A DNA stretch of 64,000 nucleotides, taken from Bacteroidota bacterium. GTDB taxonomy: Bacteria > Bacteroidota > Bacteroidia > UKL13-3. The notes beneath the pieces are model-generated. The model saw only the letters and a list, made by a program, of their open reading frames with translations, was not told the DNA's origin and searched no databases. A program made the position numbers and the translations under genes. The stretch is taken from contig JBKDBG010000017.1 of assembly GCA_046314755.1 (NCBI GenBank), positions 7,626-71,625 on the forward strand, read 5' to 3'. Shown piece by piece: positions 37,767 to 53,995 of the stretch; positions within the stretch are counted from its first letter, which is position 1, and each line of letters opens with the position of its first letter.

Positions 37767-38180
37767 AAGTATTATTTTTTTATTTTGTCTCTTTCAAACC
37801 ATCGTTAATAACTTGATAGCACAGGCAGCTAAGCTTTAAAATGGGCAAAAATTTATTTGCTTATTAATTTTGAATTATTAATGAAGTTATAAATTATTCA
37901 AACAAAGCAATTCATCCCGGGGACATTTAATCTCATTTTAATCTTATTGTTTGGTTTATTGGGCGAAAAACAAAATAACTAGCCACAAATAGGTATAAGT
38001 AGAAAATGTTGGAATATTGATTAATTCAATATATGGCTTAATCGTAATTCTTTTGTGTAGTGTATCATTTACAATTAAGAACTTAATTGCTGTGGAAAAC
38101 TAGCCTTGACTTTTCCAATTAATTACCATGATTGGTTGAAAACAGGGGAATGAAATGCCCTAAGGCAAAATTAGGAAACA

Positions 38181-38209
38181 AAAAAGCCACACAAAACGCG
38201 TGGCTTTTA
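38181..38209 (-). terminator. Rho-independent (bidirectional-type) terminator after the 1126-aa gene
   Basis: AAAAGCCAC (38182-38190) pairs with GTGGCTTTT (38200-38208) around a 9-nt loop. The A-run and T-run flanks sit immediately downstream of the stop at 38232 on the minus strand. Confidence 0.55.
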
Positions 38210-38231
38210 TATGACAAATTTTACTTATTGC

Positions 38232-41200
38232 CTACTCCACCAAGAGTTTCTTTTGAATAGAAGAGTTTATGGTATTAATTTCTACAAAATATAACCCCGG
38301 TTCCAAAGCAGATATATCAATGGTTTTTTGAAGCGCTACAACACATTTCACCCTACCATCAGTTTGTCTCATCGTAACGGTTCCTTGATCCTCCTCTTGT
38401 AAGCCGTCAATATGAATAAATCCTTTTGCCGGATTAGGGTAAATACTTAATGCATGCATTGGGTCTCCATTGTCAACACGCACCACATGGCTGTATTCGC
38501 TTTGGTTAAATTCAATCTTGTTTAATCGATAATACCCTTCTACTAATCTATTGTCATCAAAAACGTATTGTGTTTGGGTGGCTCTGTTTTTTGATTGAAT
38601 ATATCCAATCGTTTCAAATGCTAATCCATCGGCTGAATATTGTACTTCATAGCCTTTCATGTTTTTTTCTTGAGCCGTTGTCCATGATATTACGTTGCCG
38701 AATTCTTTTCGTCTAGCAGAAAAAGAAACTAGCTTTACGGGAAGTGCTTGCGCATTTCCGATTACTAATCTGAAGCGATTGCCTCCGGTTGCAGCATTTG
38801 AATTTTGAATTTGAAAAGTATATTTTGAATGCAACCTCACGTTGGTGATGTTGTTATTAAAAAGGTCAATCAAATACACATCCTTATTGGCTGGAATAGT
38901 ATTGCCCAAATCAAGCTCAATGGTATAACTTCCATTGGATACTGCATTTGTGCTTATCACAAATGTATCTGCTGTACTGTTGTTTAATGCTTGAACCACA
39001 TTGCGTTGAACAAGTTGATGATCAGAAGTAACAAATCCCATGTTGATGTTGCTGTTTAATAACTTCATGGCATCTTCATTAAACACATATGATAAAGAGG
39101 AATTGGGTTTAAAATGAAGCCAGGCGATATCATACTTTGTACTGTCTTGGTACATTTTAATGGATAAGGGATTTTCTTCTGTCTTAAAATATGCAGTTGG
39201 GTTGGTAGAAACCTTGCCGGACTCATTAAAGGTAACACTTGCCCCGGAAGAAGCAGCTTGTACGAAAAAGCCTTGGCCAATAGCAATATGTTGTGAAGAA
39301 GTTCTATTCACGTACATTCCGGTTGAGGCATCCCACACCCAATAGGAGTTTGATACCGACCCCGAAATGCTTAAGGCTGCATAATTAATTTCGCATGGGT
39401 ATGGGTTACCCAATAAATTCCAACCATCATTCGAGGCAGATCCGGTTGATGTATAAGATAAATTAACCGCAACAGCACCTTGGTTAATGTTGCCGAAATA
39501 ATCCATTACCGTATCATTCGGCACAATAGATGCATTTGTTAAGCTATTCGTTTGTGAACGACTTCCTCGGTAAAAAACCAACATGCCCAATCCTTGTCCA
39601 AGAGCATTGTTGGTATGGGTTATGTTCTTCCACCCTCTCCCTCCGGAAGTGTTTTCTTGATAAGTTACAATAGAAGAATTTGGTGTGGCGGCATCAAAGC
39701 CGTTTGAACCACCTCCCGGACCTGTGATCAAAATGTCTTCTTGCAATTGATTAAATGTAAAACCATTAATCGGGCTTGTCACCATTCTCCAGCCCCTTCT
39801 TCCTGAGCCGCCTTGTACAAATCGTTGCACATTTATATTGCCGCTAATGGCTGCACCTGATTGTATCTGAGCAATTCGTCCCGTTGCGGAAGCTGTTGAT
39901 ATCAATACCAAATTTCCATTTGCGTTTAATGTTCCTGCTGTTGGCGTAACTGTTCCTGTTACTTGTACTTCGTTTCCTAATGTTATCGTACTTGATGCGC
40001 GATTTACCGTAAGGTTAACAAGCCTATTGGTTGATCCGAAAGTTGTTTGATCGAAAAACAAAGAAATATTGCCTGTGCTTCCTCCAACATTTATTGATCC
40101 TCCGTTACTGCGTATAAAACCGGAAGTACGAGAAACAGCCCCATTCACCGATAACGTATTTGAACCAATATCAAGTGTAGCCGAACCAATAGTTAACGTA
40201 CCGGAAACCGTAAGGTTATTGCTTAAACTGCTTGTTCCCGAAGGCATGGTATAGTTTTGAAGTTCTGTTGGCAATGTGAAGTTAGAAATGCTTCCACCGT
40301 TAAAAATTAACGACCCGGTGTTGCCAAGCGTTAAGTTGTTTGATGCGTTAAACGCCCCATTTAGCGTAAGCGTACCGTTAATGGTTCGCGATGCATGCAG
40401 CACAGCCCCTGAAGCTCCAACAGAAACATTGTTTGGACCAGAGGAAGATGGCCACTCCATATTATTTGTTGTTTGCACAGAAACACCGGAATATACCAAC
40501 GTGCTATTATTTCCATAAGCAATTGAACCTGCACCGATGATGGTGCCCGAATGCGTTAAAGCTCCATTAATTGTCAACGTAACTCCTGCGTCTACTGTGA
40601 GTGTACCACCTGTATTTATTGTTAGTTCATCAAGGGTCTGGTTGCTGCTTACTCGAAGCGTTCCGCCATTATTAACAGTTACATCATTGGTTGCGGGTAA
40701 GGTTGAGCCCCCACTTCTGTTTAACTGTAAAGTTCCTGCATTAACGGTCGTTAATCCGGTAAATGTATTTTGCGCTGTTAATGTAACCGTGCCTAAACCA
40801 TTTTTATTCACATCATTAATGGTTGACTCATTGTTGGAAATCACACCAGTTACATTGAACGACTCGCTCGTGTTTGCGGTTAAATTTATTGGTATGTTGG
40901 AAACCTCTAACAATGTAAATAAAGCATCCATATTTGCTCCTGAGTTCCTTACATGAATTAATGCGGGAGAAACTCCAGTAGAGCCCGTAAATCTTCTAAT
41001 ATTGTTTCTGTTTGATCCAATAACCAGATTAAACTCTCGGTCAGAAACCACTTCAATATCATAGGTTGTTCCTGATTTGAAATCGGTAAAGTTAGGCATA
41101 TTCGTAGTGGAGAAACCTGCGCCATCACTAAATCGCGCTGTTGATTGTCCGCCTAGAAATTCTATTTTTAATATCGAGTTATTGTCATACCTACCAGCTA

Positions 41201-41612: not shown

Positions 41613-41685
41613 GCTTTTATAACTTTATTATTAAAATAACAGGCACCTATTAATCTTTTTTTCTAACCTTAATTTAAATCCTATT

Positions 41686-43800
41686 TCATTTCAAAAGTTT
41701 AATTGTTCTCTTTTCACCGTTATTATTTATCGTTAAATAATAAACACCTTCACTCAGTCCCTCTAAATTGCTTAGCACAAGTTTGCGGTCATGGGTCATT
41801 GACCGGCCTTCCTTCATCAACATGCCTTGCACATTATAAATTTCCCAAGCCAATGTGGTTGCCTCGCCTTGAATTCCGCTTATGATAATTTGATCATTAA
41901 ACGGTACCGGATATGCATTCAAATCTTTCCACAACAACTCTTGTTCAACACTTACTGTTTCAGAAAAAGAAACTGCTCCATCATAATCCACTTGTTTGAT
42001 TCGATAATAGGCCGCACCATCCAACACCTCATCAATAAACTGATAGGTGTTGCTTGTTTTGCTGTTACCGGCTCCACGAACAAAGGCAAGGTCTTCAAAG
42101 TATCTACCGTCAATTGACCTTTGAACAACAAACCCTTTGTTATTACTTTCTGAAGCAGTGGTCCATTCTACCAACACGGCACCATTTTTTACTTTAGCGC
42201 CTACGTTTACAAACACAACAGGTAAAGCAACATTGCACGTATTAAATACTGAACCTAACAAAACAGCGGTTGTGTTTATTCTGGTATATGTACGATTAAA
42301 TCCGCCCACACCATTGCTCACTGTGCAAGAGCGTTGGGCGGGATTCGGAAAGGATTCATGATTCGCAGCAACAGAGCTGTCTCCGTTAATGTATTTGTAC
42401 TCAAACGTAGTAGGACAAACATTGTTTACAATGGCTTGGTAGTGATTTGGTGTATTCGGAATCGGAGTCATTCTAATGGCGCCTCCCACCCAAGTTGGTG
42501 TAGTAAAACTTCCCATCACATACACTCTGCCTTGCGGGTCCGGTGTTTGTCCGGTAAGGTCAACCACAAACGTAATGGTGGATGGTGCCGGAGTTGGCGG
42601 ACAAGCGGTTGTCATGCCAAAACATGGTGTTGCTAATGTGCTATCTTTAATCACTACCAACTCTCTGTTTGAAGACGTTGTTGTAAACGAGCTCTCCCAA
42701 TTGGTTACCCCATTACGATGAAAACGAAACTTGTATTGTAGAGCAACTCCGGAATCAATGGTGATTATGCGGCTATATACATTTGTTGTTCCCAAACGAT
42801 TTAATAAAACACCATTTGACCAATTGGTTAGTGCTGCATCAGAACCTGCAACCGTAATGGAATCAATACCTCCGCAAATGTTATTGGTTACATCAACCGA
42901 AAAGGTAAGGTTGAATTTAGCCGTAAATGAAGCAACGTAATTATTTCCCGAATTATCATTTACCTGCAAGCAGCATAAACTTCTGTCGGCTTCTGTTAAT
43001 TGATTCAGTTTGCTTAATGTGAGTGTTGATGTAAACGCATAATACCTGATGCTGGTTCCGCTCGGTTGTGCCGGAATAATTACTTGCCAGTTGGTATTGG
43101 TTGGCGCATTCGTTGATGTGGCTTCTAAAATGGTAGTGCTGTTCGTTGATGCAAAACCGCTTGCAGAAGTATAACGAACAAATACCCTTTCTCCTGTTGA
43201 TGGAGCAGCTGAAGTAGTGACATTAACCACAACACTGTTGTTGGCTTGTATACTTTGGGTAACTGTGTTTAGCGTAACAGGGTTATTTGCAGTGTATCCT
43301 ACATAATACCGTGCATTTGTATTGGTGTAGCCGCAATCGTTAAACACAAAGGTATATCTGCCGGCAGTGCTCATGTTTAAGCCCATGTCGTTTCCGGAGT
43401 TGTATGCTCCTGCTATGTTCACCGAATCTATTCTGGCTTGCGCTACCGAAGTAAATACCCATTTATTTTGAAAGCGATTGGCGGGGGGGCCGGAAATAAA
43501 TAAAAATCCGTTACCACCTCCACCGGCCATGTTACTATTGGTAACATCGCCTCCCGTTGGTTGTGCATTATACGTTTTTACCCATTGCCCACGCCCATCA
43601 GTTGGGTTACCCGAAGTAGTTGTAATTCTTCGGTAAACCGAATTCGCTGATGAAGCTGTGCTGTATCCGTTCATGCTTCCGGTTACTTGAACGGGCTCTC
43701 CCGAAAAGATATTTTGACTATATGTCATCGGAGCTAACACCATACAAAACAACATTGCAATTGTTGCTTTCAACGGTTTTAATTGTAGTATGTTTTTCAT
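41686..43800 (-). CDS. Starch-binding T9SS cargo protein: unknown N-terminal domain, CBM20 plus CBM20-like second domain, pre-CTD module and T9SS CTD
   Basis: A 704-aa ORF. ITVAGSDAALTNWSNGVLLNRLGTTNVYSRIITIDSGVALQYKFRFHRNGVTNWESSFTTTSSNRELVV matches the CBM20 starch-binding pattern (W...G.V.YKF......WE...NR). The second domain, VYVMGSFTTPTWVGGAIRM...EYKYINGDSSVAANHESFPNPAQRSCTVSNGVGGFNRTY, is CBM20-like. The first roughly 170 aa are about 80% identical to the 1326-aa neighbour. The T9SS CTD is at the C-terminus. Confidence 0.8.
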   Translation of the reverse strand: MKNILQLKPLKATIAMLFCMVLAPMTYSQNIFSGEPVQVTGSMNGYSTASSANSVYRRITTTSGNPTDGRGQWVKTYNAQPTGGDVTNSNMAGGGGNGFLFISGPPANRFQNKWVFTSVAQARIDSVNIAGAYNSGNDMGLNMSTAGRYTFVFNDCGYTNTNARYYVGYTANNPVTLNTVTQSIQANNSVVVNVTTSAAPSTGERVFVRYTSASGFASTNSTTILEATSTNAPTNTNWQVIIPAQPSGTSIRYYAFTSTLTLSKLNQLTEADRSLCCLQVNDNSGNNYVASFTAKFNLTFSVDVTNNICGGIDSITVAGSDAALTNWSNGVLLNRLGTTNVYSRIITIDSGVALQYKFRFHRNGVTNWESSFTTTSSNRELVVIKDSTLATPCFGMTTACPPTPAPSTITFVVDLTGQTPDPQGRVYVMGSFTTPTWVGGAIRMTPIPNTPNHYQAIVNNVCPTTFEYKYINGDSSVAANHESFPNPAQRSCTVSNGVGGFNRTYTRINTTAVLLGSVFNTCNVALPVVFVNVGAKVKNGAVLVEWTTASESNNKGFVVQRSIDGRYFEDLAFVRGAGNSKTSNTYQFIDEVLDGAAYYRIKQVDYDGAVSFSETVSVEQELLWKDLNAYPVPFNDQIIISGIQGEATTLAWEIYNVQGMLMKEGRSMTHDRKLVLSNLEGLSEGVYYLTINNNGEKRTIKLLK

Positions 43801-43818
43801 ATGTATTACTAATTATAA

Positions 43819-46800
43819 TTACTGCTTACAAACTTTTATCATTTTTACTCCAAACTCATTTTTCACACGGAGATAATACACGCCTGATGGCAACTCCTCG
43901 GTTGAAATCTGCGCGGATGTTTGTTCTTCGGTATGATAAACCACCACACCAGTAACATTGGTAATGGTAATTGATGTTTGTTCTAATAGTCCTTCAATCA
44001 AAAGTTGGTTGTTGAACGGATTAGGATAAATATTCACTCCGTTTTCATTCACTTTGTTCAAACCTGTACCACTTAAACTTGTATTATACAATGCAGTATC
44101 TGCGCACGGAACATTAGCAATTACGCGTATGGTTCCCAATAAGCCGCTTTCCCATACTACTGTAATTTGTGAAGTTCCTAATCCGCTGATGATTTTTCCG
44201 TTTGAGCTAATCTCCCAAGCATATCCACTGAATGATGAATTTGTTGTTTGGTATAAAACGGTATCGCCTAGCTTAGCTTCTGTAGGGCCAATTACCGGAC
44301 CAACGTTTATCGGCTCACACACGTTTACATTCAATACAGTTTGGTTGCTGCAGGTATCATTTGCTTTCACCTTGATGTTGTTTGTTCCGGCACTTACCCA
44401 TTTTACTGTTATCGTGTTTGTTCCGGCACCACTTTCAATGGTTCCGCCTGTTACTTCCCAAATGGCAGTTGATCCTTGCGGTAAGGAGGTTTGATAGGCT
44501 TGTGTTTCATTTAAGCGTGCAGTGGTTGTTCCCGTAATCGGACCAACCTCAACAGCAATTCGCCTGTTCACTTCAACTGTAGTGCTTACGATACCCCCTC
44601 CAACAGAAACCAAACGAACCAAATAGTTACCCACTACTGTTGGGGCCGGAATAATTAAATTGGTTTGTCCGGATGCATTAAACAATTGAACGGTTCCCGT
44701 ATTAATCGGCTGAGCGAAACTTCCATTCGCATCAGAAATTTCAACACGGAATAATGAATCCGTATACGCTGAATTTCTTAGTGTGTATTGAACTGTTGTA
44801 ATTCCGTTACCACAAACAACAGCAGGAGATGGATTTGAAAGTTGAAGCTCTTCTTGTTTGCTGCATTTGTTAAATAAAAATTCAACTTGTGTTAATGCCG
44901 CAATATTTCTAATGAGTTGTCGATTAAACCCACCTAAGCCATTGCTAACCACACAGCCTCTTTCATTCGCATTTGGAAAAGTTTCCGCATTATTCACCAC
45001 ACTGCTATCTCCATTAATAAATTTATATAACACGGTATCTACGCAAACCTGTGTGGTGATTTCAAACAATCCGGGTTGACCAGAAACCTGCTGCATTCGC
45101 ATAGGTCCGCCCATCCATTGCGGTTGTGTGAAATTTCCCATTACATACACTCTTCCTTGTGCGTCAGGAATTACTTGCGATACATCAACCCTAAAGCGAA
45201 CAAGCGAAGGAGGATTACTCGGAGCACAATTCCCTGTTTCGCCAAAACATACCGGACCAATTGTGGCAGATGAGGTGATGGTAAACTCTCTGTTTTTGCT
45301 TGTAGTTGCAAAATCGCTTTCCCAAACTGTTGTTCCCGAGCGATGTGTTCTAAATTTATATTGAAGCGCCAATCCGGAATCCAGCAACAGTGTATCTGTA
45401 TAAATATTGGTTCCTGTTATTTGGTGCAGTCTTCTACTGCCTGCCCAATTACCTAATATCACATTGTTGCCGGTGATGGTTACTGAATCAGGAAGCGCAC
45501 ATTTTTGCTTTTCAAGATTCACCTGAAATACCACTTGGTATTTAGGAATAATTGGAGCAGGAGAGCAACTATCGAACATAAATTCTAATACAACAGGTAA
45601 GCTGTCGTTGCGAAGGAGTCTTCTGTTAAACCCTCCGCCCGATGCCGGTACTACACAAGTTCTTTGAGAAGCGGAAGGAAACGTTTCTGCATTTACAATA
45701 ACACTGCTATCTCCATTTATAAATTTGTACAATACCGTATCGGCACAAACAGAAACCATTCTTTCAAAAACACCCGGACGACCTGCTACAGGAAATAATC
45801 GTAATGCACCTTGTTGCCATTGTGGTGTGGTGAAATTTCCCATCACATAAATTCTTCCTTGGGCATTTGGAACACCTCTGCTTAAATCAACCCTAAACGT
45901 AATGTTTGATGGTGCCGGAAGAGGAGAACAATTGTTTAGTTGATTAAAACAAACTACCTCAAGTGTGGTGTCGGTGTTAACCGTAAGTTGTCGGTTTCCA
46001 CTTGTTGATGTAAAATTAGATTCCCATGTTATTGCTCCGTTTGTATGCCAACGAAATTTATACTGAATGGCTAAGGCCGAATCAAAACTGATGGTGTCAC
46101 TGTAAATATTGCTTATTCCTTCTTGTTTAAGTCGCACCGAATTCGACCAATTGCCTAACATGACGTGATTGCCTGTAATGGTTACCGAATCAAATCCGGC
46201 ACACGCCAATCGCTCCATGTTTACCCTAAATCGAACTGTTTTTTTACTGATTACAGGAGCAACCATACAACTGTCAAATAAGTACTCTAATGTTTGTGCT
46301 TGCGTACCGTTTCTTACAAAAATTCGGTTAAACCCTCCGGTTCCATTTGATACCGTGCATGAACGTTGCGAAGGAGAAGGAAATGTTTCTGCATTTGCTG
46401 CCACACTGCTGTCTCCATTCATAAATTTATAAATCACCGTGTCGGCACAAACAGAAACCGTTCTTTCAAAAACACCCGGACGACCTGCTACAGGAAATAA
46501 TCGTAATGCCCCTTGTTGCCATTGTGGTGTGGTGAAATTTCCCATCACATAAATTCTTCCTTGGGCATTTGGAACACCTCTGCTTAAATCAACCCTAAAC
46601 GTAACTTGTGATGGTGGCGGAAATGAGGGGCAAGTTTGTTGTTGACCAAAACAAAAAGCAAGAAGTGACGTATCTTTTTGAATGGTAATTTCTCGGTTGC
46701 CACTTACGGTTGAAAAGTTTGCTTCCCATTGTGTTGTTCCATTTCGGTGATACCTGAATTTAAATTGAACCGCAGCACCTGAATCAAGCAACAAGGTATC

Positions 46801-47799
46801 CGAGTGAATGGTGCCGTTGCTATTCATCCTACGCCATCCCGACCAGTTGCCCAATACCATTTGATTACCAACTAAAGTCACCGAGTCAAAAGGCACACAA
46901 GCAAATGCGGCCATATCAACATTAAACACCACATTGTATTTTGGAACAAAACTGTGTTGATAGTTTAGTCCGTTGTTGTCTAAAACTTGTAAAGCACATA
47001 AAGATTTTCCGGTTTCGTTTAGTGCATTTAACTGTGTTTGTATTAGGGTTGAAGTAAAGAAATAATACGTAACTGTACTGCCGGCATTCATAGCAGGTAA
47101 TGTGGCTTGCCATAAAGTATCGGTAGGATTATTTAAAGAGGAACATGCCAAAACCGTACTGCTTGATGTTGCTCCAAAATTTGAATTCAATGTGTATCTT
47201 ACAAACACCCTTTCATTAGGTGACGGAGTAGTGTTTGTTCTCAACTGCAATTGAAGAGTGTTGTTGGCCAACACTTGCATGCTTGCATTACTTACTTGCA
47301 CCGGCTGATTTGGGGTATAACCCACATAAAACTGGGCATTGGTTGCTGTGTAACCACAGTCGTTAAACACAAACGTATACCTTCCGGCAGTGCTCATGTT
47401 TAAGCCCATATCTTGACCGGAATTATATGCTGAAATTCCGTTGATAGAATCTAAGCGTGCTTGTCCGATTCCCGCAAAAACCCATTTGTTTTGAAAGCGA
47501 CTAGCAGAAGGTCCGGATATAAATAAAAATCCGTTACCTCCTCCACCGGCCATGTTTGTGTTTGTTACATCACCACCACTTGGTTGTGCATTATAGGTTT
47601 TTACCCATTGGCCTCTGCCATCGGTTGGGTTACCCGCATTTACCGACACCCTTCTGTAGGTGGTGTTAAATGCACTTCCCGTATTATAGTTATTCATGGA
47701 GCCAACCACTTGAACCGGCTCTCCGGAAAAAATATTCTGGGCATTTGTGCCTGTGGCAAAAAGACCCAAGAACACTCCACAAAGGATGCTTTTTTTCAT
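43819..47799 (-). CDS. Starch-binding T9SS cargo protein with four tandem (CBM20 + CBM20-like) units, two Ig-like domains and a T9SS CTD
   Basis: A 1326-aa ORF. There are four roughly 234-aa repeats, each containing a CBM20 (for example VTLVGNQMVLGNWSGWRRMNSNGTIHSDTLLLDSGAAVQFKFRYHRNGTTQWEANFSTVSGNREITI) and a second module (FRVDLSRGVPNAQGRIYVMGNFTTPQWQQGALRL...YKFMNGDSS...FPSPSQRSCTVSNGTGGFNR). The C-terminus YPNPFNNQLLIEGL...GVYYLRVKNEFGVKMIKVCKQ is a T9SS CTD. The gene starts 5 bp after the stop of the 932-aa amylase gene. Confidence 0.8.
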   Translation of the reverse strand: MKKSILCGVFLGLFATGTNAQNIFSGEPVQVVGSMNNYNTGSAFNTTYRRVSVNAGNPTDGRGQWVKTYNAQPSGGDVTNTNMAGGGGNGFLFISGPSASRFQNKWVFAGIGQARLDSINGISAYNSGQDMGLNMSTAGRYTFVFNDCGYTATNAQFYVGYTPNQPVQVSNASMQVLANNTLQLQLRTNTTPSPNERVFVRYTLNSNFGATSSSTVLACSSLNNPTDTLWQATLPAMNAGSTVTYYFFTSTLIQTQLNALNETGKSLCALQVLDNNGLNYQHSFVPKYNVVFNVDMAAFACVPFDSVTLVGNQMVLGNWSGWRRMNSNGTIHSDTLLLDSGAAVQFKFRYHRNGTTQWEANFSTVSGNREITIQKDTSLLAFCFGQQQTCPSFPPPSQVTFRVDLSRGVPNAQGRIYVMGNFTTPQWQQGALRLFPVAGRPGVFERTVSVCADTVIYKFMNGDSSVAANAETFPSPSQRSCTVSNGTGGFNRIFVRNGTQAQTLEYLFDSCMVAPVISKKTVRFRVNMERLACAGFDSVTITGNHVMLGNWSNSVRLKQEGISNIYSDTISFDSALAIQYKFRWHTNGAITWESNFTSTSGNRQLTVNTDTTLEVVCFNQLNNCSPLPAPSNITFRVDLSRGVPNAQGRIYVMGNFTTPQWQQGALRLFPVAGRPGVFERMVSVCADTVLYKFINGDSSVIVNAETFPSASQRTCVVPASGGGFNRRLLRNDSLPVVLEFMFDSCSPAPIIPKYQVVFQVNLEKQKCALPDSVTITGNNVILGNWAGSRRLHQITGTNIYTDTLLLDSGLALQYKFRTHRSGTTVWESDFATTSKNREFTITSSATIGPVCFGETGNCAPSNPPSLVRFRVDVSQVIPDAQGRVYVMGNFTQPQWMGGPMRMQQVSGQPGLFEITTQVCVDTVLYKFINGDSSVVNNAETFPNANERGCVVSNGLGGFNRQLIRNIAALTQVEFLFNKCSKQEELQLSNPSPAVVCGNGITTVQYTLRNSAYTDSLFRVEISDANGSFAQPINTGTVQLFNASGQTNLIIPAPTVVGNYLVRLVSVGGGIVSTTVEVNRRIAVEVGPITGTTTARLNETQAYQTSLPQGSTAIWEVTGGTIESGAGTNTITVKWVSAGTNNIKVKANDTCSNQTVLNVNVCEPINVGPVIGPTEAKLGDTVLYQTTNSSFSGYAWEISSNGKIISGLGTSQITVVWESGLLGTIRVIANVPCADTALYNTSLSGTGLNKVNENGVNIYPNPFNNQLLIEGLLEQTSITITNVTGVVVYHTEEQTSAQISTEELPSGVYYLRVKNEFGVKMIKVCKQ
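45737..45903. repeat. Near-identical roughly 165-bp direct repeat, copy A (copy B at 46438-46605), inside the 1326-aa gene
   Basis: CGGCACAAACAGAAACC(A/G)TTCTTTCAAAAACACCCGGACGACCTGCTACAGGAAATAATCGTAATGC(A/C)CCTTGTTGCCATTGTGGTGTGGTGAAATTTCCCATCACATAAATTCTTCCTTGGGCATTTGGAACACCTCTGCTTAAATCAACCCTAAACGTAA occurs twice, about 702 bp apart, with only about 2 mismatches. The flanks are similar at roughly 85% identity. Confidence 0.85.
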
Positions 47800-47804
47800 A
47801 CGTG

Positions 47805-50603
47805 TTAATGTTTTACCAATACTTTCTTCACTTCACTTGCGTGCGTATATTCAATTCTTAATAAATACATTCCATTGGTTACTTCACTTACATTGATATC
47901 GGCTATGTTATTATCAATTTCAGTTGATATGATTTCTTTTCCTGATAAATCAAGAAGGCTGATTTTTTTGATAGGCTGTTTGAGTGATTCAATAATTATT
48001 TTTTCATTGGCCGGGTTTGGAAACACATTGCTCATTCCGGTCATTGGCATTTCGGTTAAACCCACACTGCCGCTTGGTTTTGTGGTAAGTTTCACATCAG
48101 TAAACACCACATAATCTCCCGGTTGTAAGCTAATAGTTTGCCCCACATTGGTTACATTAATTGAATCACCGGTAATGTAATTATACCACCATCCGGTATG
48201 CTGAAAACCCGGAGTTAAATTAAGAGGAACCACATCAAAATTTCCTGCAATTACGGTATTCATGCTGTCGTGATTCACCTTAAGTACTTTACCTGTTCCG
48301 GCTACATCGTAGATGTAGTTATCCGATGAAAAAGAAACGTGTTGTTTCAACTTGGCAATCATACCAACTTGAGTAAGGGCAGCAACACGATCGGCATTGT
48401 TTAAGTAATCCCAGCGAAAGGGTTTATTGCCGGTTCTTCCATTGGTGTTAATAGAAACTTCGTATCCCAACTCTCCTCCTTGCCATAACATTTTTGGGCC
48501 TTTTAATGGTAACAACAATGCATGATAAGCAGCCACACGTTTTAAGGCATTGCTTAAGTTTTTTGTGCTATATCCGCCACTTGCATTGCCATAGGTTAAA
48601 GTAGAAAACATGATACGTTCTTCATCATGGCTTTCGGCATAGGTAATTAAGTTTGGAAAATTCCAGCCTCTGGCTTTGTAATTACCCCAACTTAAATTTG
48701 CTTTTGAATTGTTATAACCCATTGTTGCTTCTGCGTAAGCTTCAGTCATTTTACCCCACAACATAAAACCCATGTTTGCCAATACGGTTTCTTCCGAGTT
48801 ATCACCCAAATGCTCCAATATTAAATACGCATCAGGCGCATACTTAATAATTTCATTGCGTATTCTATTCCAAATATCTACTCGAGACTGATCGTAGGCA
48901 CTCCAGGCCCCAATATCACCAAGGGTGTTTTTTTGTGTGAATCCTTTTGATAAATCAAAACGATAACCATCAACTTTATACTCCGTCAACCAAAATTTAA
49001 TCACACGATCCGTAAATTCTTTTACTACTTGTGCTTCGTGGTTGTAGTCATAACCCACACCAAAAGGATGTTTATCTACTTGATTAAACCAAGGGTTTTG
49101 TGCCGTTGGCTGTCCGTACTGACCTGCCGTTGGATCAAAGTACATTCTTACCTGAGGATTTTGGCCAAACGAATGGTTTAATGCAATATCTAAAACAACC
49201 GCTATTCCGTTGGCATGACACTCATCTACGAACGCTTTAAAATCATTTTTTGTTCCGTAGTATTTGTCAATTGCGAAATAAAACATTGGATTGTAGCCCC
49301 AACTTTCATTCCCTTCAAACTCCATAATAGGCATAATTTTTACGCAGTTGGCACCAACTCTTTTTAAATAACTGATGGTGTCTTTTAGGGTTTTAAAATC
49401 ATGTTTGCCAATAAAATCACGAACCAATAATTCATAAATTACCAGTTTATCATTTAATGGCTTTACAAAGTTGTTTGTTTTCCAAGTATAAGCAGGTTCA
49501 CCTATTTGCAGTACCGAAACAACTTCAGTTGTTTTTCCAACCGGATACGGTTTTAAATTCGGATATGTTTCAGGAGTAATCCAACCATCATTCCAAGGAT
49601 CAAGAACTTTTTCGGCATATACATCAGCCACTTTTAATTGCACATCATCAATTGAATATTGAAAAGCATATTCTACTCCTTTTGTTAATCCTGATATGGT
49701 AATCCAATATCGGCTTCCGTCAGGAGTACGCTTCATTAAATAGTTGGGATGAAATTCCCAATTATTAAAATCACCAATTACATAAACAAAGTTTTTAAAC
49801 GGAGCAAAAAGCTGTAAGGTTACGGAAGAATCATTAATATAATTTATTCCATCAATAACACCTGATGGTGATGTTGCAATAGCAGGGTTTAATCTTGGCA
49901 TGATGTAAGACGTATCATATGATTTTGTGCCATTTAAATTTCCTTCCAACACCAAATTAACGCGCGTATTTCCAAAACCCAACGCAGTGTTTTTATACGT
50001 TAATGAGGTGGAATTATTCGCTTGTGCAACTTGCACCCCATTGGCAAACAAGGTTAATGTTGAAGGGGCAGAAGCTCCGGCAGAAACAGTGAACGAATCG
50101 GTTGGGTTAAAAAAACTGCCTTTTTGTGGGACGTTTATTTTCGCTTGATAAGTACCTTGGTTAATGTCTACAAAAATATCTCCGCCACCACTTGTTTTTC
50201 CTGTTTTGCTTCCATCGGCATTTCTGAACACAAACGCTAATCTTAACACGGTTTCATTGGCAGGAATTCCATAAAACGAGCGAATATTTCCAATTGTTAA
50301 AGTATATCTGTTGGTGTTACCTATTCGTGTTAGTAAAGCTTTAGGCAAATTGGTTGTCCATGGCGCAATTACATACCTCCAATCTGAACCGGAAGTGCTG
50401 GCAGAGGTAATTACTCCCGAATGTGCATAAATGGTACTCTGACCCAATAAAGCAGCGTTGCCTAATGAGGCATCAAAAGTAATAACAACATTATTATCAT
50501 TGGCCGTTGCAAACGCAGGGCTAATAGAAATAAGTTGTGCAGAAACACGGTAAGTAACCGAAAAAAATAATACAAAGGCTATTAATTTATTTTTCATATG
50601 CAT
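47805..50603 (-). CDS. GH13 alpha-amylase family enzyme with an N-terminal CBM48-like domain and a T9SS C-terminal sorting domain
   Basis: A 932-aa ORF. All four GH13 conserved regions are present: VVLDIALNHS (I), VDGYRFDLSKGF (II), LILEHLGD (III) and YAESHDEERI (IV). FVYVIGDFNNWEF...RYWITISGLTKGVEYAFQYSID fits the CBM48/E-set pattern. The C-terminus VFPNPANEKIIIESL...GMYLLRIEYTHASEVKKVLVKH is a T9SS CTD. Confidence 0.9.
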   Translation of the reverse strand: MHMKNKLIAFVLFFSVTYRVSAQLISISPAFATANDNNVVITFDASLGNAALLGQSTIYAHSGVITSASTSGSDWRYVIAPWTTNLPKALLTRIGNTNRYTLTIGNIRSFYGIPANETVLRLAFVFRNADGSKTGKTSGGGDIFVDINQGTYQAKINVPQKGSFFNPTDSFTVSAGASAPSTLTLFANGVQVAQANNSTSLTYKNTALGFGNTRVNLVLEGNLNGTKSYDTSYIMPRLNPAIATSPSGVIDGINYINDSSVTLQLFAPFKNFVYVIGDFNNWEFHPNYLMKRTPDGSRYWITISGLTKGVEYAFQYSIDDVQLKVADVYAEKVLDPWNDGWITPETYPNLKPYPVGKTTEVVSVLQIGEPAYTWKTNNFVKPLNDKLVIYELLVRDFIGKHDFKTLKDTISYLKRVGANCVKIMPIMEFEGNESWGYNPMFYFAIDKYYGTKNDFKAFVDECHANGIAVVLDIALNHSFGQNPQVRMYFDPTAGQYGQPTAQNPWFNQVDKHPFGVGYDYNHEAQVVKEFTDRVIKFWLTEYKVDGYRFDLSKGFTQKNTLGDIGAWSAYDQSRVDIWNRIRNEIIKYAPDAYLILEHLGDNSEETVLANMGFMLWGKMTEAYAEATMGYNNSKANLSWGNYKARGWNFPNLITYAESHDEERIMFSTLTYGNASGGYSTKNLSNALKRVAAYHALLLPLKGPKMLWQGGELGYEVSINTNGRTGNKPFRWDYLNNADRVAALTQVGMIAKLKQHVSFSSDNYIYDVAGTGKVLKVNHDSMNTVIAGNFDVVPLNLTPGFQHTGWWYNYITGDSINVTNVGQTISLQPGDYVVFTDVKLTTKPSGSVGLTEMPMTGMSNVFPNPANEKIIIESLKQPIKKISLLDLSGKEIISTEIDNNIADINVSEVTNGMYLLRIEYTHASEVKKVLVKH

Positions 50604-50882
50604 GGTTTTGTTTACTGTTTTAAAAAAGCAGTAAGTGTAAAATTAACACTTATTCACAGAAACACAAACTTTTGTGATGATTTCATCAATAAATTATAAG
50701 GTCTTTTTGCTTGTTTTATAAAATGGCAATCACCCTTTTTGTTGAACACAGATTAAACAGCGGCTACAGAAAAGGGATTATTAGAATTTTGCTTGGTTCA
50801 AATGCTGGGCAACCATTCTTTATGAATAATTTCCATGAGGGATATCTGGTGATGATTGTCAACAACAAAGGACCTGCACTTA

Positions 50883-53588
50883 CTATTGTTTTTGTACCTT
50901 TTTACGGAAAATGGTTTTATTCTTGTACTCCAACTCCAACACATACAAACCGTCCGGCAAATGTTTTGTGTGAAGCAGATACCCGTCTCCGTTTTCTTGA
51001 ACATCAACGGTTACTAATTTGCCAACCATATTATACAGCCGCAATTTGGATGAAGGAGGAACATTCGCAATTTGCAGCGCATCACCAAACGGATGAGGGA
51101 AAAACAATACTTTATGATTTTCTTCTTCCAACAAACCGGTGCTATTGCTCACCACAAATCGCCATTGGTTTGACGAGTTAAATCCTGCAAAAGGGTTGTT
51201 AGCCAAATCTTTTACAGCCGCTTGATCAACGAGTACATATACTTCGACTCCCGGAGTAAACCCTGCATGGTTAATCGTAAGTACACTCCCTGAAACCAAT
51301 ACATTACTTGATGCAACCGGATAGGTATACTTTAATTCGTTATTTTCAAAAATTTGTATGTTACCCGTTCCTTTGATAATGTTTTCTGAAAAGGTAATGC
51401 TTAGCGCTGCAACACTCGAAACATTTAAAGCCGCATTTAAAGGACTTAAACTGCTTACCGTTGGCGCTTGCGTATCTGATTGGCCATTGCCCAACGCTGT
51501 TTTATAATCTTGGCTGCCATTATTATCCCACGTACCATTTCCATTGTGAAAGGCTGCACAAAAATTAACTCTTGCATTAGCAGGAACCATAACCGTTGTG
51601 GTCCAAACGTTGCCGGATTTTACCATGGCCTTATCTTGAACTCCGCCCACGGTCCAATTGTCCCAACTGTAATGCATCAACACTTGTGACTGGCTGGCCA
51701 AACTACCCGAATAAGTGATGGTTAAGTTTTGTGTGGGTGCCGGATTTTGAGGAACAAAAGTTACGGCTGAACTTCCTCCGCCACCACCCGAACTGCTGTT
51801 TTGAAAAAACCCTTCACCTAAAGCGCCAATCAACCCCGGGCCATTTAATAGGTATACTCCGGCACTTCCGGGTTGAACGACAAAGGATAAATTTCCGCTG
51901 CTTACTGTAATGGCGTGTCCGGTAACAGCATCTCGATAGGTACCATTGCTTAATCCCGAAAAATTAAACGTAACCGCACCATCTTTTGCTAAGCCAACAG
52001 CAACTTCGCTTGACCCAAATTTTCGCACAAAGCCCACTCCGTTTGAACTGTTTGTTCCATCCCAACGCCAAGACCCTTTTTGCAAAGCAGGAATCGCCTT
52101 TCTAATGGCATTCAGTTTTCTGATGTGTTTGTAAATTTGGTGATTGGGGGCATTGGCAATTTCGTTTCCAAAATAAGCTCGGCCGGTATTGTCAATGGAA
52201 AAATTGATGTCGTTAGAGGAATGAATATCAGCATAGGCTCCTTTTTTAAATTGCACTTCGGTGCCATAATATACACAAGGCAACCCTCTCCAAAAAAACA
52301 TAAAGTTTAATGCGGCTGCCAGGTTCTGCGCGTCACCATCATAACGTTTGTTCCAATCGTTATTCGGACCAAAATCATGGTTATCCAAAAACATCACATT
52401 GGTTGATGGGTCAGCATATAAATCATCATAAAGTGCCGCTGATTTTACGTTTGAAAACGCTTCGCCTTTACCAAACAAATGAAAGGTTCCCATGGCAAAA
52501 AAATCGAGAACAGCGATATTACTTGAAGGAGAGTTTTTAGTTTGTCCGCGCCAAGTATACCAATGTGGATTTATTTCTTCTATTTGATGTAACTCATGTC
52601 GCTTTTGTGCCACTTCAGCAAATACCATTAGGTTTGGATTAACTTGTCGAAAGCGATCAACAAAATACAATACATCTCTTTTAGGCATGTGTTTTACGGC
52701 ATCTAAACGCATACCATCAATTCCCATATCGATAAATGTTTTGTATGCATTAAACAAGTAATTACGAACACTGTCTCCACCCGTTAGTAAATCGGGAGTA
52801 TCTCCGGCTAATGCACGGTAATATAAATTGGTAGTATCATCATATCCTTGCGCAAACCCATTACCCGACTTGTTGTACCAAGCAGCATCGCTGGTGGTTA
52901 CATAACTTTCCATGCTTGGCCAGTTAAATGCGGCAAGGTTTTGGTTAAATGGAGGCGGCATTTTAGCCAGGTTAGATCTACTCCATATTTTACCATCCAT
53001 TGGGTTGGGCGTGAGCCCGTCATATTGCCACAATGGATTATCTTGCAATGGCTGACCCATTAAGTTTTTGCCCCATGGCTGGTTCGGGTCGGTGTTGTAT
53101 TTAATTTCTGCTTTGCCTTTAATGCCAAATCTTCCGGCATGGTTTAATACAACATCCAAAAACACCTTTATCCCCTTGGCGTGAGCTGAATCAATAAGAT
53201 TTTTAAACGTGTAGCCGGGTGATTCTAAACGCGGGTCTACTTTGGTAAAATCCCATGCATGATAACCATGGTAATCAAGCGGGCTTCTATTTTGTACAAT
53301 GGGCGTAATCCAAATGGCGGTAAAACCCATGTCTTTGATATAATCTAATTTTTGAACCAGCCCCTTAAAATCGCCTTTCCAAGTCACATCATTTACGCCT
53401 GCATAATTAGCATTATTAGGATTACCGGGGAAATAAGAACACCATTCGGTTGGACGGTTATTGGTTGGATCACCATCGAAAAAACGGGTGGTGAGTAAAA
53501 AGTAAATGGTTTCCTCTCTGATATCGGATTGAGGATACACAGAAAAAGATATTGTAAGCAAACAAAGCGCTGTAAATAATTTTCTCAT
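50883..53588 (-). CDS. GH13 alpha-amylase with a C-terminal CBM25/26-like starch-binding domain, an Ig-like domain and a T9SS C-terminal sorting domain
   Basis: A 901-aa ORF with signal peptide MRKLFTALCLLTISFSVYPQ. The GH13 regions are FLDVVLNHAG (I), GIDGMRLDAVKHMP (II), MVFAEVAQ (III) and FLDNHDFG (IV). LTITYSGSLASQSQVLMHYSWDNWT...GNGTWDNNGSQDYK resembles the Bacillus-type starch-binding modules. The C-terminus FFPHPFGDALQIANV...GLYVLELEYKNKTIFRKKVQKQ is a T9SS CTD. Confidence 0.9.
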   Translation of the reverse strand: MRKLFTALCLLTISFSVYPQSDIREETIYFLLTTRFFDGDPTNNRPTEWCSYFPGNPNNANYAGVNDVTWKGDFKGLVQKLDYIKDMGFTAIWITPIVQNRSPLDYHGYHAWDFTKVDPRLESPGYTFKNLIDSAHAKGIKVFLDVVLNHAGRFGIKGKAEIKYNTDPNQPWGKNLMGQPLQDNPLWQYDGLTPNPMDGKIWSRSNLAKMPPPFNQNLAAFNWPSMESYVTTSDAAWYNKSGNGFAQGYDDTTNLYYRALAGDTPDLLTGGDSVRNYLFNAYKTFIDMGIDGMRLDAVKHMPKRDVLYFVDRFRQVNPNLMVFAEVAQKRHELHQIEEINPHWYTWRGQTKNSPSSNIAVLDFFAMGTFHLFGKGEAFSNVKSAALYDDLYADPSTNVMFLDNHDFGPNNDWNKRYDGDAQNLAAALNFMFFWRGLPCVYYGTEVQFKKGAYADIHSSNDINFSIDNTGRAYFGNEIANAPNHQIYKHIRKLNAIRKAIPALQKGSWRWDGTNSSNGVGFVRKFGSSEVAVGLAKDGAVTFNFSGLSNGTYRDAVTGHAITVSSGNLSFVVQPGSAGVYLLNGPGLIGALGEGFFQNSSSGGGGGSSAVTFVPQNPAPTQNLTITYSGSLASQSQVLMHYSWDNWTVGGVQDKAMVKSGNVWTTTVMVPANARVNFCAAFHNGNGTWDNNGSQDYKTALGNGQSDTQAPTVSSLSPLNAALNVSSVAALSITFSENIIKGTGNIQIFENNELKYTYPVASSNVLVSGSVLTINHAGFTPGVEVYVLVDQAAVKDLANNPFAGFNSSNQWRFVVSNSTGLLEEENHKVLFFPHPFGDALQIANVPPSSKLRLYNMVGKLVTVDVQENGDGYLLHTKHLPDGLYVLELEYKNKTIFRKKVQKQ

Positions 53589-53860
53589 TACTCAAATATA
53601 TCATAACCGATTTTGAAAATTACAACAGTAATTGTAAAAAATACACTTAATAGACTAATTGGCGTTTATCGGAGGTCAATTTTGAATACATGATTGTTTT
53701 TTTAAAACAGATTACACTTCTGGGCTAATTAACTACACACATTGTTTTTAATTGAATAAAACAAACAATGACATTTTTTTATATAAAACACAATCACTAA
53801 AGCGCTACTTTTCCAAATAGGTCAGCACCCATTTCTTTAAACAACTAAAGCTCTCTCAAC

Positions 53861-53900
53861 AAAAAAGCTGCTTAATATATTAAACAGCTTTTTTGTTTTA
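53861..53900 (-). terminator. Strong bidirectional rho-independent terminator downstream of the 406-aa lipoprotein gene and upstream of the amylase gene
   Basis: AAAAAAGCTG (53861-53870) pairs with CAGCTTTTTT (53885-53894) as a perfect 10-bp stem. The loop CTTAATATATTAAA is itself palindromic. There is an A-run on one side and a T-run (TTTTTTGTTTT) on the other. Confidence 0.6.
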
Positions 53901-53995
53901 TGACCATGACTTCATTGCGTAACCGAAAATCTTGCCTAACCAACTTTACTTTGGCGTTTAGTTTTTCACCAAAAAGAAAACAGCAATAAAAAACA

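Follow-up and report, generated by a model that had tools for sequence, protein, structure and literature searches.

The five consecutive genes described here, in a 64-kb stretch of bacterial DNA (the window, by which we mean the whole stretch that was analysed), probably constitute the extracellular front end of starch or alpha-glucan use, made entirely of T9SS cargo, with uptake provided by a separate SusC/SusD PUL. Each of the five proteins would cross the inner membrane by Sec via an SPI-type signal and would be taken through the outer membrane by T9SS via its type A C-terminal domain (CTD), thereafter staying on the cell surface or being released. The CBM20 arrays of the 1326- and 704-aa proteins, which are probably co-transcribed with the 932-aa GH13_47 amylase, would hold granules or particles of alpha-glucan (starch from algae or cyanobacteria, glycogen, necromass) by avidity, and the GH13 amylases would cut the held alpha-glucan to maltooligosaccharides. 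These would most probably be taken up by the SusC/SusD of a starch PUL that lies apart from this locus, on a different contig of the same genome, and that would also carry a third T9SS protein (X25/CBM48/CBM20), a GH31 alpha-glucosidase, and a regulator. With uptake left to that PUL, the T9SS cargo would fill the roles of SusE, SusF, and SusG, not those of SusC and SusD.

Locus layout and export signals

ORF calling places five minus-strand genes in a row at 38232-53588 (Table 1), with the same coordinates as in the first-pass annotation of this DNA, whose description of five consecutive T9SS-CTD genes agrees with both the ORF positions and the CTD matches. The host is an uncultured freshwater Bacteroidota bacterium. 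The gaps of 5, 18, and 73 bp among the 932-, 1326-, 704-, and 1126-aa genes follow directly from the ORF coordinates, as that annotation had stated, and its proposal of an operon also holds up: given the short gaps, the gene order kept in relatives, and the strong terminator-like hairpin after the 1126-aa gene, 932→1326→704→1126 appear to be transcribed as a single unit. Within 37700-54100 no other terminator-like site is as strong as this hairpin, which likely marks the end of the unit; the scan of that interval found no comparable site between the four genes. Since 279 bp separate the 901- and 932-aa genes, the 901-aa gene is probably a separate transcription unit with its own promoter.

Table 1. 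Features of the locus, numbered from the first letter of the window
Feature	Position	Strand	Details
901-aa GH13 alpha-amylase gene	50883..53588	(-)	ORF
901-aa protein, domains			SPI signal peptide; GH13 catalytic ~30-580; CBM53/CBM25-like ~620-700; Big_5 Ig-like 705-811; type A CTD 830-901
932-aa GH13 subfamily-47-type alpha-amylase gene	47805..50603	(-)	ORF; first gene of conserved cassette
932-aa protein, domains			signal peptide; DUF4961-like 21-133; CBM48 ~250-330; catalytic + C domain to ~836; type A CTD 860-932
1326-aa CBM20-array T9SS cargo gene	43819..47799	(-)	ORF
1326-aa protein, N-domain (preceded by signal peptide)	46948-47739	(-)	residues 21-284
1326-aa protein, three tandem A+B units	44845-46947	(-)	residues 285-985
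1326-aa protein, C-terminal part			unassigned ~90-aa domain; two PKD_6 (~1076-1240); type A CTD 1257-1326
704-aa CBM20-type T9SS cargo gene	41686..43800	(-)	ORF
704-aa protein, N-domain (preceded by signal peptide)	42919-43716	(-)	residues 29-294
704-aa protein, CBM20 A module	42586-42918	(-)	residues 295-405
704-aa protein, B module	42226-42585	(-)	residues 406-525
704-aa protein, C-terminal part			Fn3-like 526-629; type A CTD 630-704
1126-aa T9SS cargo gene, PATR repeat	38232..41612	(-)	ORF
1126-aa protein, domains			predicted beta-helix/adhesin-like region (one PATR repeat); Fn3-like domain; type A CTD
Intrinsic-terminator-like hairpin	38182..38208	(-)	12-bp stem + T tail, 24 nt past the 1126-aa stop codon

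All five proteins match Por_Secre_tail/TIGR04183 above the curated cut-offs (Pfam 32.8-47.7 bits, cut-off 27; NCBIfam 31.3-48.9 bits, cut-off 23), all five CTDs are type A, and PNP/PVP and G-x-Y motifs are present in the CTD tails. Inspection of the N-termini by eye found in all five a hydrophobic core and then A/S/P-Q, that is, an SPI-type Sec signal with Gln next, and in none a lipobox Cys. Judging by these signals, the proteins would be exported via T9SS, either to the cell surface or into the medium. Eight CTD-bearing proteins are encoded in the 64-kb window, and an active T9SS is therefore implied; the window itself yielded no gene for the T9SS machinery, and a GldL_N gene lies close to the cassette in one relative (L002).

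The 1126-aa protein had been annotated as an autotransporter-repeat protein. The repeat is present in a single copy (PATR, 32.1 bits; TIGR02601, autotrns_rpt, 36.5 bits), but the Pfam and NCBIfam searches found no C-terminal autotransporter beta-barrel, and with one PATR repeat and a T9SS CTD at its C-terminus the protein was ruled out as a type V autotransporter.

Amylases and CBM20 arrays

The domain matches, together with the CTDs, support the earlier view of a starch cluster made of T9SS cargo, including its two GH13 alpha-amylases, both of which have intact catalytic residues. The 932-aa protein matches Pfam Alpha-amylase (E = 1e-21) and, in phmmer searches against the PDB, the alpha-amylase 8xx9_A (E = 2e-171, residues 245-836) and BoGH13ASus (8dge/8dl2, E = 5e-100). 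The 655-aa alpha-amylase of 8XX9 is presumably the Rhodothermus marinus enzyme. The catalytic triad, aligned to structure, is kept in YRFDLSKGF (containing the nucleophile Asp), ILEHLG, and ESHDE, and the inactive mutant 8xxa has Ala where the 932-aa protein has the aligned nucleophile Asp. The N-terminal CBM48-like domain that had been proposed for this amylase scores 21.7 bits, just under the gathering score of 22.4, and its region is covered by the alignment to the GH13_47 structure 8xx9, which begins at residue 245. Similarity to characterised members over CBM48 and the catalytic domain points to a secreted GH13_47 endo-alpha-amylase. Characterised GH13_47 members tolerate alpha-1,6 branches.

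The 901-aa protein matches Pfam Alpha-amylase (E = 4e-42) and, by phmmer against the PDB, CGTases, neopullulanases, and Anoxybacillus amylases (best E = 1e-37). GH13 regions I (DVVLNH), II (GMRLDAVKH), III (FAEV), and IV (FLDNHD) are all present. The C-terminal module, previously described as CBM25/26-like, is corroborated by a CBM53 match that passes its cut-off (39.7 versus 27.6 bits), while the Pfam CBM25 match stays under threshold.

The 1326- and 704-aa proteins are built from a two-module unit in which a canonical CBM20 (A) is paired with a divergent module of CBM20 fold (B). The first-pass annotation described both as non-catalytic proteins of tandem CBM20 modules, which Pfam bears out for the A modules; the B modules are recognisable as CBM20 by fold only. 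Its count of one pair in the 704-aa protein is correct, but the four pairs given for the 1326-aa protein are three, as seen in module-against-module blastp (A modules 47-52% mutual identity, B modules 59-77%), in a DNA direct repeat in the gene (three copies at 702-nt spacing), and in the three stretches matched by Pfam CBM_20 (E = 5e-23; PKD_6 and Por_Secre_tail match as well). Scored singly, the A modules pass Pfam CBM_20 (PF00686) with 25.0-40.2 bits versus a gathering score of 23.3. Their profile aligns to the CBM20 of STBD1, Trichoderma reesei glucoamylase, and CGTases, and the site-1 tryptophans, the W of LGNW/LTNW and the W of (T)WES, are kept when aligned to solved CBM20s.

Because the B modules fall below the CBM_20 threshold (best 15.3 bits, E = 0.017, and otherwise just AMPK1_CBM at E = 0.03-0.07) and the profile search matched them to no solved CBM20 structure by sequence, we class them as CBM20-like, with a predicted CBM20 fold, rather than as CBM20 members. 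Their CBM20 beta-sandwich comes from a moderately confident AF2 model (pLDDT 79). W32 is invariant among the B modules, which also retain a Y-K motif and FNR; the equivalence of these to binding-site residues was judged by eye.

It is plausible, as had been proposed, that the 1326- and 704-aa proteins capture starch as analogs of SusE/F, either at the cell surface or in secreted form, with starch binding predicted from their modules. The likeness would be one of functional analogy only, as neither protein contains SusE or SusF Pfam domains and both have SPI signals, not lipoprotein signals. Cohesin and dockerin Pfam matches were absent from all five proteins.

Relatives, SusC/SusD, and the shared N-terminal domain

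We surveyed as relatives 80 species-representative genomes with a B-module protein. The core order GH13_47 → long array protein → ~700-aa protein is found again in no fewer than seven related MAG species (among species representatives, L006, L007, L009, L010, and L012, and partly L034) and on metagenome contigs. The three-gene core is kept in L002/L012, L003/L007, L005/L009, L006, and L010, with 932-aa orthologs of 70-80% identity in the same position, and a 901-aa ortholog (77-78% identity) lies upstream of the cassette in L006 and L010 only. The 1126-aa gene is a frequent, though not universal, fourth member of the cassette: L003/L007 have a homolog (1312 aa, 43% identity) after the ~700-aa gene, on its downstream side, L002/L012, L011, L013-L015, and L034 encode related T9SS proteins, and a gene of this type is absent from the cassette in L005/L009, L006, and L010. 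B-module proteins carry a CTD in 71/80 cases, and a B-module gene directly adjoins a GH13 gene in 45/80 genomes. Given this adjacency and the recurring core order, the gene arrangement is not due to chance.

Relatives are drawn from freshwater bloom-associated MAGs, among them UKL13-3, which came from an Aphanizomenon co-culture (PMC5248499). Such a setting would suit a particle-attached or epibiotic lifestyle in which the arrays and the 1126-aa protein tether the cell to alpha-glucan particles, algal or cyanobacterial cells, or detritus, with amylase feeding secondary. Multivalent CBM arrays, PKD/Fn3-like spacers, and a PATR/beta-helix neighbor are typical of adhesins, and the N-terminal domain of the array proteins (see below) also occurs in T9SS surface proteins with no starch connection. 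We nevertheless consider a primarily adhesive role unlikely: the tight conserved linkage to GH13_47 and the frequency of GH13 adjacency argue for catabolism, and attachment and substrate capture can coexist.

The first-pass annotation reported a locus with no SusC/SusD and proposed that the arrays replace SusD/E/F. The absence stands for the locus and for the window, where neither Pfam nor phmmer with bona fide SusC/SusD seeds found either protein in any large ORF; the 10 kb on either side of the cassette likewise contain no SusC/D in L002, L003, L005-L007, L009, L010, and L012. Beyond the window, it does not stand. In 12/80 genomes (L018-L020, L023-L026, L029, L030, L032, L033, and L035; L089-L091 are also SusC/D positive), a SusC/SusD pair is directly flanked by an orthologous T9SS GH13_47 and a T9SS CBM20/X25 protein. 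At these 12 loci SusC and SusD lie just downstream of the GH13_47-CTD gene and are divergent from a T9SS CBM48/X25/CBM20 protein, with GH31, cyclomaltodextrinase, and MFS transporter genes nearby; the L018 locus was confirmed by Pfam, and the PUL-linked relatives show weak SusF_SusE and X25 matches.

The MAG Prado075, the closest relative with data, combines a T9SS-only cassette like that of the window (L007) with a SusC/D starch PUL at a different locus (L020). Its GH13_47 ortholog is 79.7% identical to that of the window, and its SusC is 80% identical to a SusC cluster (P0136/P0267/P0268) one member of which, P0267, is encoded on contigs from Logan SRR31514730 and JGI 3300059473, both being samples that also hold the window cassette. 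The JGI sample also holds a second related species. A member of this cluster, MFN7313581.1, is 1,377 accession numbers away from the window proteins MFN7312204/206/210. The GC content of the SusC/D contigs is 38.1-38.6% versus 38.8% for the window, and their tetranucleotide correlation is 0.94-0.96 to the window versus 0.88-0.92 to other related species in the sample. From co-occurrence, composition, matching divergence, and accession proximity, rather than from physical linkage, we infer that the SusC/D contig belongs to the window's genome. Regarding the question raised at first pass of SusC/D elsewhere in the genome, a candidate locus thus co-occurs with the window in the same two samples.

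These results bear on the possibility of a starch system without any PUL, in which the T9SS-secreted amylases and CBM20 arrays would break starch down outside the cell, the products would enter by generic porins or non-Sus TonB-dependent transporters and the arrays would replace SusD along with SusE/F. The lack of SusC/D in the window and around the cassette in the relatives' loci named above would fit such a system, and T9SS polysaccharide degradation without a PUL is an accepted category in the account of McKee et al. 2021 given in PMC10792170. We regard it as highly improbable here, as Prado075 retains a SusC/D starch PUL alongside the same cassette, the orthologous SusC/D locus occurs in both window samples with fitting composition and accession block, and the orthologous T9SS genes are physically joined to SusC/D in 12 related genomes. 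For the same reasons, replacement of SusD (and SusC) by T9SS cargo is unlikely, and that part of the earlier proposal falls away; T9SS cargo in place of SusE/F/G, with uptake still Sus-like, is the better reading.

Both array proteins begin with a conserved ~265-aa N-domain that the first-pass annotation lacked and that accounts for about a third of the length of the 704-aa protein. It matched nothing in Pfam or NCBIfam, and Foldseek returned nothing at E ≤ 1e-3. It is ~50-60% identical across Chitinophagaceae, Flavobacterium, and other Bacteroidota, and Arg, Asp, Glu, and Trp are among its 27 invariant positions. T9SS cargo of diverse kinds carries it, nearly always at the start of the mature protein. 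Elsewhere it does not adjoin alpha-glucan genes and is common to many starch-unrelated T9SS surface proteins. As the domain has no assignable function and elsewhere lies away from alpha-glucan genes, the array proteins may do more than bind starch. That it is an unrecognised enzyme or a binder of another ligand, which the CBM20 pairs merely target to alpha-glucan, so that the 704- and 1326-aa proteins would not be "non-catalytic," is very doubtful in our judgment, though its unusual conservation, its position at the head of varied T9SS cargo, and its lack of a family model all fit.

Significance and comparison with known systems

The locus and its ~80 relatives suggest that in many uncultured freshwater and marine Bacteroidota the outward-facing Sus roles are filled by T9SS cargo bearing multivalent CBM20-type arrays, and they hint at how planktonic Bacteroidota take particulate storage glucans in blooms. 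In some lineages the T9SS starch genes are separated from the SusC/D core, and PUL predictors anchored on SusC/D would miss such genes. The B module and the N-domain are two candidate new modules for biochemistry. A bolder extension, possible but tentative, is that T9SS-delivered non-catalytic starch binders combining CBM20 with a divergent partner are an undescribed class widespread in environmental Bacteroidota. In the window lineage the N-domain at their front would then define a new family of T9SS cargo heads, and their genes, along with that of a T9SS GH13_47 amylase, would have left the starch PUL for an expandable operon (1-3 pairs per protein), giving an amylosome-like surface layer for insoluble alpha-glucan whose regulation is uncoupled from SusC/D; if true, the divergent B partner could merit its own CBM family.

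The Sus system, with its lipoprotein binders SusE/F and lipoprotein amylase SusG, is the textbook Bacteroidota glycan model. Like the Bacteroides thetaiotaomicron Sus, our proposed system would pair a surface GH13 endo-amylase with non-catalytic proteins of tandem beta-sandwich CBMs, and relatives (L018 and others) have a SusC-SusD core with alpha-glucosidase and neopullulanase-type enzymes downstream. It differs in that the binders and amylase are type A CTD cargo with SPI signals rather than lipoproteins, in having CBM20-type pairs and not only X25 modules, and in that the amylase/binder operon of the window lineage is unlinked from SusC/D. The Ruminococcus bromii amylosome (Sas6, Sas20, Sca5) is Gram-positive and relies on cohesin-dockerin and sortase assembly, whereas the window proteins lack cohesin and dockerin and their anchoring would be by T9SS/CTD. 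With BoGH13ASus of Bacteroides ovatus (8DL2; PMC11142093), the 932-aa protein shares an alignment over the CBM48, catalytic, and C domains, with catalytic residues kept, and a presumed role as extracellular starch cleaver of a Sus-like system (PMC11142093, PMC11239784); BoGH13ASus is a lipoprotein with CBM98, while the 932-aa protein has a DUF4961-like N-terminal domain and a T9SS CTD.

Further parallels come from T9SS-dependent systems. The ChiA chitin system of Flavobacterium johnsoniae is a "hybrid PUL," and the cellulases of Cytophaga hutchinsonii exemplify PUL-free T9SS degradation. T9SS-secreted amylases are routine in F. johnsoniae, in which T9SS function is by standard practice assayed through the secretion of amylase (PMC11885536; also PMC5127042). 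As with these amylases and ChiA, T9SS-exported glycoside hydrolases would here feed SusC/D-based uptake; unlike in F. johnsoniae, where the literature searched describes no dedicated non-catalytic CBM20-array cargo, binders outnumber enzymes in the window operon. In B. salyersiae, T9SS-targeted non-catalytic mannan-binding proteins occur within a SusC/D PUL (bioRxiv 10.1101/2022.07.15.500217). Like Bs04081 and Bs04072 of that species, the array proteins are large multi-modular CTD binders, predicted to be non-catalytic, that would partner SusC/D alongside T9SS glycoside hydrolases, but the B. salyersiae proteins act on alpha-mannan, have Big_2-type binding regions, and are encoded inside the PUL, while ours would act on alpha-glucan, have CBM20-type modules, and are encoded in a cassette outside it. 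McKee et al. 2021 (cited in PMC10792170) have names for two kinds of T9SS mechanism, "PUL-free" and "hybrid PUL." Like the former, the locus comprises T9SS CAZyme and CBM proteins alone and has no SusC/D next to it, but the evidence speaks for a SusC/D partner encoded at another place in the genome, and the whole system is therefore better described as a split hybrid PUL. In sum, our results refine the known concepts of hybrid PULs and T9SS-secreted CAZymes and do not constitute a new principle.

T9SS cargo and gene layout in the cluster

ORF calling recovered five consecutive minus-strand genes exactly where the first-pass annotation had placed them, and the ORF coordinates also bear out its gaps of 5, 18, and 73 bp between the 932-, 1326-, 704-, and 1126-aa genes; 279 bp separate the 901- and 932-aa genes. 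The stop codon of the 1126-aa gene is followed, 24 nt later, by a strong terminator-like hairpin, which agrees with a predicted single transcription unit 932→1326→704→1126.

Coordinates of the features in the window
Feature	Position	Strand	N-terminal end	Basis
901-aa gene	50883-53588	minus	53588	ORF calling
932-aa gene	47805-50603	minus	50603	ORF calling
1326-aa gene	43819-47799	minus	47799	ORF calling
704-aa gene	41686-43800	minus	43800	ORF calling
1126-aa gene	38232-41612	minus	41612	ORF calling
Seven consecutive genes with type A CTD (2497, 3464, 1126, 704, 1326, 932, 901 aa)	19623-53588	minus		
1922-aa ORF with type A T9SS CTD	58167-63935			
N-domain copies	42919-43716, 46948-47739	minus		
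Two adjoining lipoprotein ORFs (406, 434 aa), lipobox ...ASCKK	53996-55216, 55222-56526	minus		
Full-length ComA-type (2R)-phospho-3-sulfolactate synthase	14253-15044	plus		Pfam E 4e-90

As had been claimed, all five proteins end in a T9SS type A C-terminal sorting domain (CTD), scoring over the curated cut-offs for both Pfam PF18962 and NCBIfam TIGR04183. Inspection of the N-termini found a signal-peptidase-I-type start followed by Gln in each and a lipobox in none (predicted cleavage sites …SSA↓QN, …YS↓QN, …NA↓QN, …SA↓QL, and …YP↓QS). Secreted Bacteroidota proteins tend to begin with (pyro)glutamine, a tendency that this Gln fits. Because the sorting domain also occurs in two neighbors (3464 and 2497 aa) and in the 1922-aa ORF at the window's other end, T9SS cargo status is common in this region and not special by itself. 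The giant CTD proteins gave no Pfam match beyond the CTD; a ~190-aa C-terminal cassette, Fn3-like domain plus CTD, is common to them and the 704- and 1126-aa proteins (33-39% identity). P. gingivalis and F. johnsoniae provide known cases of type A CTD cargo both kept at the surface and released.

Two lipoprotein ORFs sit just upstream of the 901-aa amylase gene. They match no Pfam or NCBIfam family (a weak SusE match, E 0.017, and a BNR repeat hint were all that appeared), and homologs are absent from the ~90 related loci examined. Elsewhere in the window, the ComA-type gene stands beside genes for a TPR protein and YqeY and could have a part in sulfonate or sulfonolipid metabolism.

Amylases and putative binding arrays

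Both proteins annotated as GH13 amylases held up as such. Residues 245-836 of the 932-aa protein match a solved 655-aa alpha-amylase (8xx9, E 2e-171), and the protein also matches BoGH13ASus of Bacteroides ovatus (8dge/8dl2, E 5e-100). BoGH13ASus and a Rhodothermus marinus enzyme belong to GH13_47, whose amylases tolerate alpha-1,6 branches (PMC11239784, PMC11142093). The nucleophile Asp, acid/base Glu, and His-Asp motif are kept in the alignment to 8xx9, and the inactive-mutant entry 8xxa deviates exactly at the Asp aligned with the nucleophile. The alignment to 8xx9 covers the proposed CBM48 region, which falls just under threshold in Pfam alone. The N-terminal ~110 residues (21-133) match the C-terminal part of DUF4961. 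In PUL-type relatives, a free-standing protein of ~287 aa with the same weak match is encoded downstream of SusD, in the "SusE position" (L018, one related locus, 138-1001, minus); the DUF4961-like domain is possibly another uncharacterized alpha-glucan-binding module. The 901-aa protein has all four conserved GH13 regions, its nearest structures being CGTase, neopullulanase, and Anoxybacillus-type enzymes, and Pfam places a CBM53/25-type module after the catalytic part, followed by a Big_5 domain and the CTD.

The 704- and 1326-aa proteins share an N-terminal domain of ~265 residues (N-domain; 64% identity) followed by a 234-residue unit, present once in the former and three times in the latter. 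Since a 300-nt DNA repeat at 702-nt spacing shows the threefold repetition in the 1326-aa gene itself, the earlier count of four CBM20 pairs was wrong. Each unit comprises two modules, A and B. The CBM20 assignment is sound for A, which exceeds the Pfam CBM_20 threshold when scored alone and can be aligned to CBM20 domains from STBD1, T. reesei glucoamylase, and CGTases so that both site-1 tryptophans match; B is a CBM20-fold module and not a CBM20 member. One unassigned domain, two PKD_6 domains, and the CTD follow the units in the 1326-aa protein; an Fn3-like domain and the CTD follow in the 704-aa protein.

No Pfam or NCBIfam model matches the N-domain, which seems to be a domain family still to be named, with 253 clusters at 50% identity among the 1.8 billion proteins of the library searched. 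Its AF2 model has two beta-sandwiches (pLDDT 95.8). Copies ~50% identical to it sit at the mature N-terminus of over 100 further T9SS cargo proteins, from Chitinophagaceae, Flavobacterium, and others. Many of these are minimal (~470 aa; N-domain, Fn3-like domain, and CTD), and larger ones are fusions with MopE-like, SprB, or PKD regions. The neighborhoods of three other N-domain genes contained no alpha-glucan genes.

The 1126-aa "autotransporter-repeat protein" does carry a single PATR/autotransporter-type repeat, but its T9SS tail and lack of an autotransporter barrel led us to reject it as an autotransporter. Homologs lie downstream of the ~700-aa gene in several relatives, not all.

Conservation and the probable location of SusC/SusD

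The 704-aa protein is exactly NCBI MFN7312204.1, from a "Bacteroidota bacterium" MAG (75.8-kb contig). Cassettes orthologous to this one are found in Bacteroidetes bacterium B1(2017), MAG Prado075, a Lake Mendota MAG, and other freshwater MAGs; in them, GH13_47-CTD precedes an array protein (860-1326 aa, one to three pairs) and then a ~700-aa protein. Only two of these loci have the 901-aa amylase upstream. Array length varies among orthologs from one to three (or more) pairs (860, 872, 1092, and 1326 aa).

A module B scan taking one genome per species gave 80 loci, almost all from Bacteroidota MAGs (Bacteroidia, "Sphingobacteriales," Flavobacteriales, Cryomorphaceae), plus the complete genome UKL13-3 and Schleiferia thermophila. 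Of the 80, 71 have a T9SS tail on the B-module protein, 45 place its gene directly next to a GH13 gene, and 12 show the N-domain in it; Pfam found X25, CBM48/AMPK-CBM, and CBM20 modules plus Por_Secre_tail in examples. From these counts and domain matches, predicted noncatalytic, multimodule T9SS alpha-glucan binders beside GH13 genes are widespread; we found no description of them in the literature searched. Single MAGs hold two or more separate loci (L007/L020, L006/L021, L009/L016), including a 1056-aa A×2+B protein in L016 and a 979-aa protein in L021, so the family is multicopy per genome. Bacteroidota-type T9SS/GH13 loci also appear under the titles Vulcanococcus limneticus, Comamonas sp., Burkholderiales, Comamonadaceae, and "Chitinophaga pinensis" (L014, L031, L034, L051, L054, L055, and L023/L024/L030); these contigs were probably mis-binned, or the bulk MAG submissions used placeholder taxonomy.

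The reported absence of SusC/SusD holds for the 64-kb window and for ±10 kb around window-like cassettes in relatives, but probably not for the organism. Twelve of the 80 loci have a SusC/SusD block directly after the orthologous GH13_47-CTD gene: a TonB-dependent receptor of 1021 aa (Plug, CarbopepD_reg_2, barrel), a SusD-like lipoprotein of 469 aa, and a DUF4961-like protein, divergent from a ~570-aa T9SS CBM48/X25/CBM20 protein and near GH31, cyclomaltodextrinase-type GH13, and MFS transporter genes. Judged by gene content, this is a canonical starch PUL with putative T9SS cargo in the SusE/F/G positions. Prado075, among the closest relatives (GH13_47 79.7% identical), has a window-like cassette (L007) as well as a SusC/D PUL on a different contig (L020); that PUL encodes a T9SS binding protein and GH31 and lacks GH13_47. 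In this lineage the amylase seems to have moved out of the PUL to sit with the array proteins.

With the Prado075 SusC as query, we obtained a SusC cluster at 80% identity that includes MFN7313581.1, 1,377 accession numbers after the window proteins. Another member, P0267, lies on contigs (L089-L091) from exactly both window-cassette samples (Logan SRR31514730, IMG 3300059473). Their layout is a 574-aa T9SS X25/CBM48/CBM20 protein ⇄ SusC → SusD → two small genes, with an NrtR-like regulator and GH31; their GC content is 38.1-38.6% (window, 38.8%; Prado075, 35%), and their tetranucleotide correlation is 0.94-0.96 to the window and 0.88-0.92 to the other related species found in the same sample. 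Accession nearness, shared samples, layout, and composition, rather than physical linkage, make a separate SusC/D starch PUL in this organism probable.

A proposed split system and its known counterparts

The evidence best fits the model of a split hybrid system. As T9SS cargo, two amylases, two or three multivalent binders, and perhaps an adhesin would capture and cut extracellular alpha-glucan, and the products would be imported by a Sus-type transporter encoded elsewhere in the genome. The suggestion that the arrays are starch-capture proteins is reasonable by analogy with SusE/F. That they replace SusD, in a full departure from the Sus paradigm, is not supported, given the SusC/D PUL in relatives and probably here.

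Secretion of amylases by T9SS is a familiar finding in F. johnsoniae (PMC11885536), and T9SS mechanisms already have the category names "hybrid PUL" and "PUL-free" (McKee et al. 2021, as cited in PMC10792170). T9SS-targeted noncatalytic glycan-binding proteins have been shown experimentally for the B. salyersiae mannan PUL (bioRxiv 10.1101/2022.07.15.500217). What appears to be new here is the alpha-glucan version with its expandable arrays of CBM20 and CBM20-like pairs, the relocation of amylase and binders away from SusC/D, and two uncharacterized components, module B and the N-domain.
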